A DNA stretch of 7,068 bases from the NCBI GenBank assembly GCA_035387745.1, contig DAOOON010000033.1, forward strand, positions 1 to 7,068. The letters run 5' to 3'. The DNA is from an archaeon. Lineage in GTDB: Archaea > Iainarchaeota > Iainarchaeia > Iainarchaeales > CSSED10-239. Within the stretch, counting starts at the first letter, position 1. Each line of letters opens with the position of its first letter. Below the pieces are notes generated by a model, which saw only the letters and a list, made by a program, of their open reading frames with translations, made no database searches and was not told the DNA's origin. The position numbers were made by a program, and so were the translations under genes. Shown here in pieces: positions 1,359 to 7,068 of the stretch.

Positions 1359-1637
1359 TTATTTATTTAATTTTATTTCGATTGCTGACACTTTCATAGG
1401 GGTATTATTTTCTGTAGTTATCTCTTCTGTTGAAATAACTATGTCAGATACCTTTACTGTATTAACAAATTTGTTCTTCACAATCTCTGCAACATCAACG
1501 GCTTTAGAAATTGTCTTTCCTCTTGCTTTGATCATAACAGTATCTGTGCCTTGATTGAATTGTGTTATAACTGCTAATACATATGACATTGTACCTTTTT
1601 TTCCGATGTATATTGTATTTCCTTCCATTTCGCTCAT
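1359..1637 (-). CDS. albA: Alba (Sac10b family) archaeal chromatin / DNA-RNA-binding protein
   Basis: The 92-aa product matches the Alba family along its whole length: NTIYIGKKGTMSYVLAVITQFNQG...IKARGKTISKAVDVAEIVKNKF...IEIKL. A strong Shine-Dalgarno sits 5 nt upstream and the stop is TAA. Confidence 0.95.
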   Translation of the reverse strand: MSEMEGNTIYIGKKGTMSYVLAVITQFNQGTDTVMIKARGKTISKAVDVAEIVKNKFVNTVKVSDIVISTEEITTENNTPMKVSAIEIKLNK

Positions 1638-1652: not shown

Positions 1653-1729
1653 TTTAATAGATGTATTATTGAATTATATATTTATTTAAACAAAATGTTT
1701 AAAAACAGGCATTTTTATATATTTATATT
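1653..1729. promoter_or_regulatory. AT-rich divergent promoter region between Alba and the 1743 gene, with TATA-like boxes
   Basis: TTTATTTAAA (1681..1690) and TTTTTATATATTTATAT (about 1712..1728) resemble the archaeal TATA consensus TTTAWATA and can be read on either strand. No transcription start site data are available. Confidence 0.3.
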
Positions 1730-1735
1730 GGAGGT
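1730..1735 (+). promoter_or_regulatory. Shine-Dalgarno site for the 1743 CDS
   Basis: GGAGGT lies 7 nt upstream of ATG 1743. This supports the internal start over the track start at 1695. Confidence 0.6.
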
Positions 1736-1742
1736 AATTACT

Positions 1743-2165
1743 ATGCCTAGTATTGAAGTACATTGTGCAATTTCAAAAAAAAGAACAGGGGAAAGTTTTA
1801 AAGAACTACATGAATGGATTGATGAACCCGGAACTTTAAAAGGAGCAGAACATAGACTTGATAGACACAGATATACAGAAGAAGATAGAGATTATATTAA
1901 GAAAATATGGGATCTTAAACTTGGTGCGGGTGGCGGAAACAAAGCCATAGTTGAATGGTTATTTCACATTGCTATGGACTATATGGATGTTGGATTTAAA
2001 ATGTCAAATACTATTTATGAAAATAATCAAAACAATGTATTTATGTTTGGATTTAATAATGAAGGAAACATACATACAACATTTGGTACGATAGATAAGA
2101 CAGAATTAAACAAAATTTCAGAAAGCTATCTTTATGACCCAAATGCAGACTTTGAATATTATTAA
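1743..2165 (+). CDS. Small conserved-looking hypothetical protein (140 aa) with a His/Asp-rich N-terminal motif
   Basis: The track ORF is 1695..2165. I prefer the start at M17 (MPSIEVHCAIS...) because of the GGAGGT site upstream, and because the 16 extra residues (MFKNRHFYIFILEVIT) look like AT-rich noise. The N-terminal half shows the pattern H-x3-S-x11-H-x-W-x-D-x9-HR-x3-H, followed by VEWLFHIAMD. The stop is TAA. Function is unknown. Confidence 0.7.
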   Translation: MPSIEVHCAISKKRTGESFKELHEWIDEPGTLKGAEHRLDRHRYTEEDRDYIKKIWDLKLGAGGGNKAIVEWLFHIAMDYMDVGFKMSNTIYENNQNNVFMFGFNNEGNIHTTFGTIDKTELNKISESYLYDPNADFEYY

Positions 2166-3495: not shown

Positions 3496-3780
3496 ATGAA
3501 GATACCAAAGCAAATAAAGACATACTGTAGAAAATGTAAAAAACACCAGCCACATAAGCTTTCACAATACAAATCTAGAGGCGCAAGAACCTTGGCCGTA
3601 GGTACTAGAAAAAATGTTAGAAAGCACAAAAAAGGTTATGGTGGAATGGCAAAGCACATTGCAACAGTTAAAAAGCAGAATAAAAAACCAGTGTTTACTG
3701 CGGAATGCTCTGTATGTAAAGCAAAGCATTACTATGTTATTCCAAAGAAAATGAAAAAAACAGAATTTAAGACCGACTAA
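3496..3780 (+). CDS. rpl44e: 50S ribosomal protein L44e (eL42)
   Basis: The 94-aa basic protein starts MKIPKQIKTYCRKCKKHQPHKLSQYK and contains GYGG. It has the four-Cys zinc ribbon C11/C14 and C71/C74 (CSVCKAK) typical of L44e. The stop is TAA. Confidence 0.95.
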   Translation: MKIPKQIKTYCRKCKKHQPHKLSQYKSRGARTLAVGTRKNVRKHKKGYGGMAKHIATVKKQNKKPVFTAECSVCKAKHYYVIPKKMKKTEFKTD

Positions 3781-3784
3781 AGTC

Positions 3785-3803
3785 TTTATTTTTCTGTTTC
3801 TTT
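3785..3803 (+). terminator. T-rich tract downstream of rpl44e (possible terminator)
   Basis: TTTATTTTTCTGTTTCTTT begins 5 nt after the rpl44e stop, which fits archaeal oligo-T termination. Confidence 0.3.
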
Positions 3804-3807
3804 AGTA

Positions 3808-3837
3808 TTTTTAAATTCATCTATAATATATTTATAG
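3808..3837 (+). promoter_or_regulatory. TATA-like elements upstream of the membrane-protein/ATPase gene pair
   Basis: TTTTTAAATT (3808..3817) is centred about 27 nt upstream of ATG 3839, consistent with a leaderless or short-leader transcript. A second element, TATAATATATTTATAG, follows. Confidence 0.3.
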
Positions 3838-3838
3838 T

Positions 3839-4513
3839 ATGAAATTTGATACAATATATAAATTTGTAGCCGCTAGTTTGGCTATAGCTTATTTTATTGG
3901 ATTGCTTGTGGGACTTGTTGTTTTTAATTTTAATATTAGAAATTATCAAGAAACAGATATCACTAGATCTTTTTATTTCTCTGGACAAATTAGTTTTAGC
4001 GAAGTCTTTTCAGAGACGCTAGAAAGTTCTTTTAAAATCGCTATATTGCCTTTTTCTTTTATTATTATTGGAACTAAAACAGGATTTACGCATGCAACAT
4101 ATATATTGTCACCATTTTTAGGGCAAATTAAACTTGCAACTCTTTTAATCCCTGCTATTTTTTATTTTATAACTTATATTATTTTGTCTGCTATTGGAAT
4201 AAAATTGTTTGCTACAATAATTATATTTTTTGTAAACAAAATACTTAAAAAAGAAAAAAAACAAATTATAAAAACAAAATTATTACAGAAAGACGATATC
4301 TTTTTATTATATGTTGCGATTGTCTCGATAATTATTGGGGCAATAATACAAGTATATCTTTCTAGAATATTTTTTATATTTTTGATTAATCTTCAACTTA
4401 TAACTTATATTCTAATTATAATTATATATCTTGGAATTATTATAGTTTCTTTTACTATACTTTATAATATAATTAAATCAGTTATTGGAAATAATAAACA
4501 AAAATTATGGTAA
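3839..4513 (+). CDS. Polytopic integral membrane protein of unknown family (224 aa)
   Basis: By eye there are about 5-6 hydrophobic helices, for example FVAASLAIAYFIGLLVGLVVFNF, LATLLIPAIFYFITYIILSAIG, IFLLYVAIVSIIIGAIIQVYL and ITYILIIIIYLGIIIVSFTILY. A Lys-rich loop (KILKKEKKQIIKTKLLQKDD) lies in the middle. The TAA stop at 4511..4513 is 3 nt before the ATPase ATG, and both genes share one frame. Confidence 0.75.
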   Translation: MKFDTIYKFVAASLAIAYFIGLLVGLVVFNFNIRNYQETDITRSFYFSGQISFSEVFSETLESSFKIAILPFSFIIIGTKTGFTHATYILSPFLGQIKLATLLIPAIFYFITYIILSAIGIKLFATIIIFFVNKILKKEKKQIIKTKLLQKDDIFLLYVAIVSIIIGAIIQVYLSRIFFIFLINLQLITYILIIIIYLGIIIVSFTILYNIIKSVIGNNKQKLW

Positions 4514-4516
4514 AAT

Positions 4517-7068
4517 ATGGGAATTGATTTTGAATCTGAAGAAATAATTGTGGGCAGAATCCAAAGCCACATAAAAAAATACGGAAAGAAAGGAACAGGC
4601 TATATAGGTAAAGTCGTGGTATCTAGCGGAGAAGAACCAGTACTTGGAAAAAAAGTTTTAATGGATGTCTCTAGATCACATGTTGCAATTGTTTGCGGAA
4701 AAAGAGGTGGGGGTAAATGCCTTACTGGAAACACCTTAATTACATTAGAAGACGGCAGAGAGATACCAATCAAAGATTTAGAAAAAGAAAATAAAAAAAT
4801 AATTTCTTTACAAAACAATCTTAAATTAAAATGCAATAAAAAATATCAATTCTATAAACGTACTGCTGATAAAACTTTAAAAATAACCTTAAGAAGCGGT
4901 AAAAAAATAGAATTAACCCCCGAACACCCGCTATTAACAATAAATGGTTGGAAAGAATCTAAGGAATTAAAAAAAGGAAGTCGTATTGCCACCCCCAGAA
5001 TTATTCCTAAATTTGGAAATAAAAAGCTTCCTGACTGCGAAGTTAAATTATTAGCGTATTTAATCGCAGAGGGCCATTTAGGGAATAGTTTTGTGTTATT
5101 TTGTAATACTGATAAAAAGATTATTTCAGAATTTACTGCTGCCGTAAACAAATTTGATAACAAACTCACAATTAACAAACACGGCAATTTTAACCTACGA
5201 ATTGTTGATAACAATAACATCAGAAAAATAATCAAAAATCAAAGAAATGACAGACAACAATTTAGTAAAGGCATCGTTTTTGATAAAAAATCTTCGATTA
5301 GAAAATATCTTGAAAAAATTAATTTGTATAATGTAAAATCAGAAACTAAATTTGTCCCAGAAACTATATTTCAATTACCTAAAGAACAACTTTCCATTTT
5401 CTTAAATAGACTGTTTTCTTGTGATGGCACAATTTATTTTGATAAAAATAAAAATGAATATAATATATCTTATTCGTCTTCATCTCCTAAATTAATACAA
5501 CAGATCCAAAGTTTACTTTTAAGATTTGGATTGCTTTCGATAATTAGAACAAAGAAAACCAAAAAATTACCAAATTATGAACTAAAGATCCTTTCGTCTC
5601 AAAATATTGAATTTATTAAAAAAATCGGGTTTTTTGGAAATAAAAAAGAAATACAAAAAAAAGTAAAACTAAAATCTAGTAATCCGAATGTAGATACAAT
5701 TCCTAAAGAAATTTGGAATATCTATAGACCAAAAAACTGGGCAATAATTGGTAAAGAATTTGGATACAAATTACCAAAAGCATTAAGGTCATCAATCAAT
5801 AATTCTCCATCAAGAGAAAAACTATTTAAAATTGCAAATTTCGAAAAAAATGAAGAGCTTAAAAAAATTGCGACAAGCGATATCTTCTGGGACGAAATTC
5901 AGGATATAAAAAAAATAAACAAAAAACAAATTGTGTATGACATAACAGTTCCAGAAACTCACAATTTTGTAGCAAATAATATTATTGTTCATAATAGTTA
6001 CACTATGTCTGTTCTGATAGAAGAATTTGCAAAACAACCATTTGAAATTAAAGAAAGGTTATCTGTTATTGTTATTGACACTGTCGGAATATTTTGGACT
6101 ATGAAATATCCAAATAAAGACGAGACGGAACTTCTTGAAAAATGGAATCTAAAACCAGACGGAATAGAAATCAGAAACCTTGTGCCTTTTGGTAAGAAAG
6201 ACTTCTATGAACAAAAGAATCTCCCACATGACGGGTATTTCTCTATAAGAACTTCGCAAATGGATATTGAAGACTGGTTGGGTGTATTTAGACTTAATTG
6301 GAGGGATGCAGAATCGTCTTTGCTTTCAAGAACCATAGAGAAAATAAAAAATAAGGTTGGAAGCCTCTTTGATATTGACGATATCATGAATGAAACAAAA
6401 AAAGACGCAGAAACCTCACAAGAAATAATTAATTCTCTTAACAACAGATTTCTTGTTGCTAAATCTTGGGGGCTTTTTTCTAGATCCGGAACAACAATGA
6501 AAGAGTTTGCAAAGCCAGGAACAATAACTATTGTTGATACTAGTACCTACAAAGAAGCAATTGGCATGGAATCCATTAAAGAACTAATTGTTGGAATACT
6601 AGGTAAAAGATTATATGAAGAAAGAATGCTATACAGAAAAGAAGAAGAGATGAGTTTATTAACTGGCGGAAGAAAAGAAAGCGAGATGCCAATTATCTGG
6701 ATGATGATTGATGAAGCACACATGTTTATGCCTAGCGACAGACAATCAATGGCGCTTGATGTTTTGTTACAGTGGATTAGAGTTGGGCGGCAGCCTGGTT
6801 TATCTTTACTTCTTGCAACACAAAGACCAAACAAACTTCATAACGAAGCAATATCGCAATGTGATTTTTTCTTAAGCATGAGAATGACTTCTCAAGAAGA
6901 CATTATGGCTGTTTCGTCTATTAGGCCAAGCTATCTTAATATTCCTATGGATAAATATTATGGACAGATGCCAAAAGACCAAGGCTTTGCAATACTTCTA
7001 GATGATAATTCTGAAAAAGTAATGCTAATAAAAGTTAGACCCAGAATTACTTGGGATGGTGGAAAGAC
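4517..7068 (+). CDS. FtsK/HerA-superfamily (DUF87/COG0433-like) P-loop ATPase precursor containing an intein; 3' end beyond the window
   Basis: Absent from the ORF track because it has no stop in the window. Translation from ATG 4517 gives 850 uninterrupted codons to 7066 (every codon checked). The N-extein is 67 aa and ends ...LMDVSRSHVAIVCGKRGGGK. The C-extein begins SYTMSVLIEEFAKQ... After removing the intein, Walker A reads GKRGGGKS. Walker B is IIWMMIDEAH (6692..6721). A superfamily-typical LLLATQRP motif follows (ATQRP = 6815..6829), and the visible end reads VRPRITWDGG. Confidence 0.85.
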   Translation, partial: MGIDFESEEIIVGRIQSHIKKYGKKGTGYIGKVVVSSGEEPVLGKKVLMDVSRSHVAIVCGKRGGGKCLTGNTLITLEDGREIPIKDLEKENKKIISLQNNLKLKCNKKYQFYKRTADKTLKITLRSGKKIELTPEHPLLTINGWKESKELKKGSRIATPRIIPKFGNKKLPDCEVKLLAYLIAEGHLGNSFVLFCNTDKKIISEFTAAVNKFDNKLTINKHGNFNLRIVDNNNIRKIIKNQRNDRQQFSKGIVFDKKSSIRKYLEKINLYNVKSETKFVPETIFQLPKEQLSIFLNRLFSCDGTIYFDKNKNEYNISYSSSSPKLIQQIQSLLLRFGLLSIIRTKKTKKLPNYELKILSSQNIEFIKKIGFFGNKKEIQKKVKLKSSNPNVDTIPKEIWNIYRPKNWAIIGKEFGYKLPKALRSSINNSPSREKLFKIANFEKNEELKKIATSDIFWDEIQDIKKINKKQIVYDITVPETHNFVANNIIVHNSYTMSVLIEEFAKQPFEIKERLSVIVIDTVGIFWTMKYPNKDETELLEKWNLKPDGIEIRNLVPFGKKDFYEQKNLPHDGYFSIRTSQMDIEDWLGVFRLNWRDAESSLLSRTIEKIKNKVGSLFDIDDIMNETKKDAETSQEIINSLNNRFLVAKSWGLFSRSGTTMKEFAKPGTITIVDTSTYKEAIGMESIKELIVGILGKRLYEERMLYRKEEEMSLLTGGRKESEMPIIWMMIDEAHMFMPSDRQSMALDVLLQWIRVGRQPGLSLLLATQRPNKLHNEAISQCDFFLSMRMTSQEDIMAVSSIRPSYLNIPMDKYYGQMPKDQGFAILLDDNSEKVMLIKVRPRITWDGGK
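4718..5995 (+). mobile_element. Class-1 intein (426 aa) with LAGLIDADG homing endonuclease, inserted in the Walker A P-loop
   Basis: Block A is Cys1, CLTGNTLITLEDG (TGC 4718..4720). Block B is TPEH (4916..4927). LAGLIDADG motif 1 is LLAYLIAEGHL (5048..5080) and motif 2 is FLNRLFSCDGT (5399..5431). A block H-like segment reads SSPKLIQQIQSLLLRFGLLS. Block F is VYDITVPETHNFVAN and block G is IIVHN (Asn 5993..5995). Ser+1 follows at 5996..5998. Excising 1278 nt (426 codons) keeps the frame and restores GxxGxGKS. Confidence 0.9.

Follow-up and report, generated by a model that had tools for sequence, protein, structure and literature searches.

We analysed a window of 7,068 nucleotides (nt; the whole stretch of DNA under study) from a genome of the Iainarchaeota, a DPANN archaeon, as an earlier note made from the sequence alone had surmised. 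The window has a guanine plus cytosine (GC) content of 29% and carries seven called genes, two of which concern us here: a gene for a 224-amino-acid membrane protein and, directly behind it, a gene for an ATPase that is interrupted by an intein. Our results show that these two genes are a conserved, tightly coupled operon within their lineage, and that the membrane partner is restricted to one genus- or family-level clade of Iainarchaeota. They also show that the ATPase is a member of the HerA clade, not of VirB4 or FtsK, and forms a compact, distinct subfamily there. The features of the pair and of the region in front of it are:

3496-3780, plus strand: rpl44e, with its stop codon at 3778-3780.
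3783-3803, plus strand: T-rich tract right behind the rpl44e stop, read from the sequence.
3808-3815, plus strand: TATA-like box TTTTTAAA, at -31 to -24 relative to the ATG of the membrane protein gene.
3839-4513, plus strand: membrane protein gene (224 amino acids), a hydrophobic open reading frame (ORF).
4509-4513, plus strand: weak Shine-Dalgarno-like GGTAA, overlapping the stop of the membrane protein gene, 4-8 nt before the ATPase ATG.
4517 to the window end (7068), plus strand: ATPase frame, open for 850 codons.
4517-4717, plus strand: N-extein of the ATPase (residues 1-67), a short beta-rich N-terminus with Walker A GKRGGGK at 4697-4717.
4718-5995, plus strand: LAGLIDADG homing-endonuclease intein (C68-N493), in the Walker A GKRGGGK/S of the P-loop.
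5996-7068, plus strand: C-extein of the ATPase from S494 (+1), with Walker B WMMIDEAH at 6698-6721 and GRQPGLSLLLATQRP at 6785-6829.

The membrane protein gene ends with TAA at 4511-4513, followed by AAT and then by the ATPase ATG at 4517, which confirms the 3-nt gap previously described. Homologues were gathered from a protein database, from species-representative genomes and from metagenomes. The available sequence extends 199 nt or more past the membrane protein gene in 32 loci, and in all 32 the ATPase was the next gene, on the same strand. The gap between the two measured -4 to +15 nt in 31 of these loci; it is 104 nt in L098, where the membrane ORF looks truncated. Around the pair, rpl44e or unrelated inserts lie upstream and convergent genes downstream, the downstream genes vary between loci, and the distance from rpl44e to the pair ranges from 48 to 3972 nt, rpl44e being missing from two loci. 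Since the pair stays intact despite these rearranged flanks, down to 36% identity of the membrane protein, it is a real operon and goes beyond passive synteny. Between pairs of loci, identity of the one protein is correlated with identity of the other (Pearson 0.90); it spans 36-88% for the membrane protein and 73-97% for the ATPase, so that the membrane protein diverges about three times faster.

The sequence in front of the pair carries both elements that the earlier note had reported there, a T-rich tract closing rpl44e and a TATA-like box behind it. The tract is a plausible archaeal terminator. For the box, we aligned 23 distinct homologous upstream regions at the ATG of the membrane protein gene: in 22 of them the start of a TATA-like motif falls within -35 to -28, as compared to 1-9 of 23 in control windows farther upstream, and its register is the same whether rpl44e or another gene lies upstream. 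This agreement in register, set against the controls, exceeds what mere AT-richness would produce. The spacing suits a leaderless archaeal mRNA, and TTTTTAAA is probably the promoter of a leaderless bicistronic message.

The junction between the two genes carries signals of its own. Relatives have GTGA, GGAA or AGGAA located 6-14 nt ahead of the point where the ATPase begins, and among the 24 listed loci, 12 have an ATPase start that overlaps the stop of the membrane protein gene by 4 nt (ATGA or GTGA), an arrangement that implies translational coupling and a fixed stoichiometry of the two products. In lineages that lack the membrane gene, the ATPases have their own TTTAAATA box about 30 nt before the ATG. 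The conserved TATA register, the coupling through a Shine-Dalgarno-like element or an overlap, and the separate box found elsewhere together indicate a bicistronic operon in which the ATPase has given up its own leaderless promoter. The statement that no promoter intervenes between the genes was correct for the gap, which at 3 nt is too small to hold one; a promoter inside the membrane ORF is still compatible with the sequence.

The intein matches Pfam Intein_splicing (E = 3e-29) and LAGLIDADG_3 (E = 4e-18) as well as TIGR01445 and TIGR01443, with boundaries at C68 and HN493/S494. An intein-free allele (P0024/L007), which is 97% identical, 431 amino acids long and reads GGGK/SY across the junction, fixes the splice junction and shows that the window contains all of the ATPase except its last 7 codons. 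Alleles without the intein (430-435 amino acids) and intein-bearing ones (837-865 amino acids) are intermixed among close relatives; the intein is also present in L001, L004, L012-L015, L032-L035, L037, L091 and L092, and the Walker A site is filled in more distant Iainarchaeota too. This distribution suggests that the P-loop intein undergoes ongoing homing and loss.

When spliced, the ATPase matches the Pfam family PF01935 (DUF87, the HerA central domain) with 49.1 bits, for a cut-off of 23.2 (E = 1e-12). The same Pfam scan returned no VirB4/TrbE-type family, and PF01580 (FtsK_SpoIIIE) scored 19.3 bits, below its threshold of 24. Residues G61, K62, G64, G66, K67, S68, E307, H309, R332 and Q343 are invariant in 20 diverse ATPases. 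An AlphaFold2 model built from 20 diverse members reached a predicted local distance difference test (pLDDT) score of 88, and when it was compared with the PDB using Foldseek the top 50 matches were all HerA, with E down to 6e-19 and a query template-modelling score (TMq) of up to 0.66. They include T. kodakarensis HerA-NurA (TMq 0.66), S. solfataricus HerA, D. radiodurans HerA and anti-phage HerAs. Hence, in the original designation of a HerA/FtsK-like ATPase the HerA part stands, while FtsK and VirB4 were either below threshold or unreported. The window ATPase has no transmembrane segment. From its homology with HerA, it should be a ring-forming motor that translocates nucleic acids and has a housekeeping role.

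Its best structural match is archaeal HerA, known from the HerA-NurA end-resection helicase (S. solfataricus 4D2I, T. kodakarensis 9X1M), with TMq 0.59-0.66 over 412-458 columns. Both share a RecA-like core with an inserted helical bundle, the Walker A motif, a DEAH-like Walker B (IDEAH) and an ATQRP motif with conserved Arg and Gln. The differences are nevertheless several. Archaeal HerA has about 500-580 amino acids, compared with 431 in the window ATPase, and it has a full HAS barrel (about 100 residues) where our model places only about 55 residues, in four short strands, before the P-loop; this short N-terminus may be a reduced HAS barrel. The window ATPase also falls below the cut-offs of the NCBIfam HerA equivalogs NF040819 (36.5 bits versus 970) and NF040937 (27.3 versus 800). 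Neither the window nor the related loci encode NurA, Mre11 or Rad50 domains, and it is a membrane protein that is the operon partner in the window's clade. FtsK/SpoIIIE belongs to the same superfamily as the window ATPase and offers the same idea of a DNA pump anchored in the membrane, but the transmembrane domain of FtsK is fused to the motor, whereas here it is a separate gene, and there is no gamma domain. A third group, the anti-phage HerA proteins (Sir2-HerA, DUF4297-HerA, TdpAB), resembles the pair in that a HerA hexamer and a variable partner are encoded in a two-gene operon. These proteins are the best sequence matches of the window ATPase in the PDB (E of about 1e-10) and in PADLOC, although the match is confined to the C-terminal half of the core and the NCBIfam scores lie far below the cut-offs (42 bits versus 850, and 33 versus 800).

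The membrane protein shows hydrophobic blocks at residues 10-28, 89-137 and 148-218 in Kyte-Doolittle windows. Its AlphaFold2 model (pLDDT 79, predicted template-modelling score 0.73) contains seven helices, of which the four at residues 5-30, 93-138, 151-184 and 186-216 are long and hydrophobic. Hydropathy and model thus predict a polytopic protein of 4-6 transmembrane helices, in keeping with the five to six counted previously, with N and C termini inside by the positive-inside rule. A lysine-rich basic loop at residues 134-153 is predicted to be cytoplasmic.

A single-sequence search gave 23 clusters of this protein, and a profile search of 5.8 billion proteins gave 67, every one of them at E <= 1e-53 and none weaker. 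These 67 clusters, together with the 36 invariant columns of the family, establish that the ORF is a real gene. Conservation includes the invariant motif SPFLGQIKL (residues 91-99), the conserved FFIFLIN (residues 178-184) and strongly conserved polar or charged residues in or beside predicted helices (H85, Q96, K98, K122, Q171 and N184). The conserved polar residues show that selection preserves a distinct function of the membrane protein. Nothing in the profile search linked it to a known family, and no match was found in Pfam, NCBIfam, PADLOC or PHROG, where 21 members were searched as well. The best hit of the family profile among PDB sequences had only E = 0.84, and Foldseek searches of the model against the PDB and BFVD gave at best E = 1.3, with a TM-score below 0.3. 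SpoIIM/DUF95 (PF01944) in particular was matched by 0 of 21 family members even at E <= 10 in the Pfam profile search. The membrane protein is therefore an orphan family, as had been suspected when no motif was recognised in it, and the alternative raised at that time, that it belongs to an unrelated housekeeping family, found no known family to rest on. The GC content of its gene is 22.7%, as compared to 35.5% for the ATPase exteins (4517-4717 plus 5996-7066), 34.4% for rpl44e and 26.6% for the intein. We considered a viral or mobile origin of the membrane protein and rejected it, since it has no relatives on viral contigs and its context is a housekeeping one.

The ATPase family is far more widespread. 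It comprises more than 3366 clusters at 90% identity and, at E <= 1e-30, 212 clusters at 50% identity. At least 524 loci were found in species-representative genomes of Iainarchaeota, Micrarchaeota, Aenigmatarchaeota, Woesearchaeota, Pacearchaeota, Nanoarchaeota and Nanohaloarchaea. Identity to the window ATPase is 55-60% across Iainarchaeota outside the clade and about 40% in the other DPANN phyla. The family is soluble, stand-alone, strongly constrained, vertically inherited and DPANN-wide. The searchable literature yielded no description of a compact DPANN HerA-like ATPase family, and no characterised member.

We then surveyed the neighbours of the ATPase at 80 species loci by clustering the neighbouring genes. 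The membrane homologue was found only beside ATPases with a mutual identity of about 73% or more (L011, L012, L013, L015 and further fetched loci). Outside this clade, no conserved partner of the ATPase was found across phyla among the 80 loci, where neighbours are lineage-specific only; in Woesearchaeota and Nanoarchaeota the contexts consist of housekeeping genes. Conservation of the two genes as neighbours, on which the earlier note had made its proposal depend, thus holds in close relatives and does not extend to the wider set of related genomes. Because most lineages do without the membrane protein, the housekeeping role expected of the ATPase does not depend on it. More distant relatives of the ATPase (31-38% identity; P0197, P0257, P0215, P0200-P0291) are 600-1650 amino acids long and include fusions to DUF835 (P0197, P0257), to a subtilase S8 plus PaaX/winged helix-turn-helix (wHTH) domain (P0215) and to wHTH domains, as well as long acidic N-terminal tails. 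They are possibly related to HVO_1301 of Haloferax volcanii, a HerA-domain protein localised at midcell (bioRxiv 10.64898/2026.07.16.738847).

The explanation that we tentatively prefer, at somewhat less than even odds, is that the membrane protein would be a fast-evolving, lineage-specific adaptor by which some of the ATPase molecules are tethered at, or recruited to, the cytoplasmic membrane. At the base of the clade, the membrane gene would have come to lie directly upstream of the ATPase and have taken over the ATPase promoter, and the ATPase start would then have gained its coupling through a Shine-Dalgarno-like element or an overlapping stop. Today, the TATA box about 30 nt before the first ATG would drive a leaderless transcript encoding the membrane protein and then the ATPase. 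The latter must first splice the LAGLIDADG intein out of its Walker A motif. Recruitment by the adaptor would possibly run via the basic loop at residues 134-153. A channel through which the ATPase pumps substrates is less likely than such an adaptor.

Several observations weigh against an adaptor. Outside the clade, operon-like co-directional neighbours with at least two transmembrane helices amount to 7 of 41, compared with a background of 113 of 627, so there is no enrichment. A fused transmembrane domain occurs in no relative of the ATPase, the longer ones having been checked for Rosetta-stone fusions. The roughly threefold faster divergence of the membrane gene and its higher AT content would also suit an unrelated passenger. 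Finally, one lineage inside the clade, L014, has an ATPase without an adjacent membrane gene. In a neighbour-joining tree of the ATPase exteins (bootstrap of 100), L014 is nested among the partnered loci: the group that includes it is recovered in 100/100 replicates, the partnered loci alone in 7/100. The gene order in L014 is rpl44e, then a gene on the opposite strand, then the ATPase; the gene in between (L014 2178-2501, minus strand) encodes a 107-amino-acid CxxCxxCC protein, putatively Zn/Fe-chelating and PF03692-like. Nesting and gene order together indicate that the membrane gene was secondarily lost or moved elsewhere. The ATPase of L014 nevertheless retains 13 of 14 clade-specific residues, the exception being T to S at profile column 230, and this leaves the 14 residues uninformative as marks of a docking surface.

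These observations lend themselves to a second explanation, in which the membrane gene is a transcriptional passenger: an unrelated gene that came to lie between the ATPase and its promoter, and that would be held there only because any insertion between the two would shut off an ATPase that the cell requires. In nearly all DPANN the ATPase family functions in the absence of the membrane protein, and the L014 ATPase, with no membrane gene beside it, shows no visible change. The lack of enrichment and of fusions anywhere in the family, as well as the much faster evolution of the membrane gene, agree with this too, and compact DPANN genomes often have unrelated genes tightly packed. A passenger would not, however, be expected to stay with the ATPase at every one of the 32 loci despite rearrangement on either side and a drift of its own sequence to 36% identity, nor to overlap the ATPase start in half of the listed loci, nor to keep conserved polar residues that point to a selected function of its own. 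We consider the passenger a serious contender, but on the whole a doubtful one.

The reading put forward in the earlier note, a dedicated membrane translocase, fares worse. It holds that a polytopic channel and the ATPase would pump DNA or another macromolecule, as in the Ced/Ted systems, type IV secretion systems (T4SS) or FtsK, and could so serve a host-dependent lifestyle. Motors of the HerA/FtsK superfamily translocate DNA, and the tight, conserved operon fits this reading, as do the conserved charged or polar residues in or beside the predicted helices and the basic loop. The Ced/Ted DNA import systems of Thermoproteota pair a VirB6-like channel of 6-7 transmembrane helices (CedA/TedA) with VirB4 homologues (CedB/TedB) and a VirB2-like pilin (CedA1/TedC) (PMC9905601). 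Like our pair, these archaeal systems join a polytopic membrane protein to an ATPase from the FtsK-HerA/VirB4 assemblage, a likeness that is a functional analogy only. CedB/TedB are of the VirB4 type, whereas the window ATPase is of the HerA clade and resembles neither VirB4 nor FtsK. The locus has no VirB2-like pilin gene, no small gene with two transmembrane helices conserved beside the pair and no other secretion components. The membrane protein has no VirB6/CedA-like match among PDB sequences or folds, a comparison that did not take in CedA and TedA themselves. Moreover, hardly any member of the ATPase family has the partner, L014 has none beside its ATPase, and a protein of 224 amino acids and 4-6 helices would make a small DNA conduit if it did not oligomerise. 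With neither enrichment of membrane neighbours nor transmembrane fusions to add to this, and with none of the hallmarks of Ced/Ted, T4SS or FtsK that we were able to check, the translocase is not supported by our results, and we regard it as improbable. A bolder variant, in which the membrane protein would oligomerise under a HerA-like hexamer to form a new HerA-driven conduit, unrelated to T4SS, Ced or FtsK, through which the host-dependent DPANN cell imports DNA or another polymer from its host or exports it there, strikes us as a long shot.

A defence module, in which a HerA-type sensor or motor would act with a membrane-disrupting effector in the manner of Sir2-HerA and DUF4297-HerA, is very improbable: HerA defence systems are indeed two-gene operons of HerA and a variable effector, and anti-phage HerA proteins head the sequence matches described above, but those matches are partial and far below cut-off, the ATPase is vertically inherited on the chromosome across DPANN in a housekeeping neighbourhood (rpl44e, Alba, cysteine desulfurase) that contrasts with the patchiness of defence islands, and the partner, which is encoded upstream and embedded in the membrane, bears no relation to known effectors and has neither a PADLOC match nor relatives on viral contigs.

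To our knowledge, the known partners of HerA are soluble (NurA, Sir2 and DUF4297), and a real interaction between the two proteins would make ours the first case of a membrane partner dedicated to a HerA-clade motor. Membrane recruitment by the adaptor, if true, would offer a way into DNA handling at the membrane in ultra-small, host-dependent DPANN archaea. The pairing is a narrow, lineage-specific feature, and the DPANN-wide ATPase family with its mobile P-loop intein is the more general one: a strongly conserved, undescribed motor in reduced genomes, for which chromosome segregation, repair and DNA exchange are candidate roles.

Some further associations were seen around the ATPase. In Iainarchaeota outside the clade, a protein of about 160 amino acids with a coiled coil and a winged helix is encoded ahead of the ATPase in 16 loci (L009 4333-4812, L016 3390-3866 and 14 others). 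A soluble protein of about 227 amino acids, without a Pfam match, is encoded convergently downstream of the ATPase in 14 loci, including the window's clade (L001 10856-11539, L007 9988-10674 and 12 others). In Aenigmatarchaeota, the ATPase is closely preceded by 1-4 ORFs whose signal peptides are of class III, the type IV pilin-like kind (MKAQVWSLD..., MKGQAAFEY...); coordinates of the pilin-like genes and neighbours are L040 983-2445, L046 1917-2393, L062 2117-3461, L073 272-745 and L041 1446-1922. A conserved divergent ORF of 86-104 amino acids also adjoins in this phylum, and a small ORF with 2-3 transmembrane helices follows the ATPase in L038, L046 and L056.

The remaining genes of the window, in which scans for tRNAs and Rfam families gave no matches, are:

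5' end of the window, minus strand: GT2 glycosyltransferase, incomplete.
1359-1637, minus strand: Alba.
1695-2165, plus strand: ORF of 156 amino acids, without a family match, flanked by Alba and the cysteine-desulfurase-like gene.
2162 to about 3367, minus strand: class-V aminotransferase or cysteine-desulfurase-like gene.

Two of the inserts found between rpl44e and the pair in other loci have a recognisable content. In L091 (1430-4567) it is a radical-SAM cluster of three genes, with a PqqD-like gene and an ORF of 44 amino acids, similar to clusters for ribosomally synthesised and post-translationally modified peptides, and in L092 (1042-4865) it consists of N6/N4 and D12-class DNA methyltransferases, resembling a restriction-modification system. 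In L007 and L008, the position of the 156-amino-acid ORF of the window is taken by a gene of 140 amino acids.

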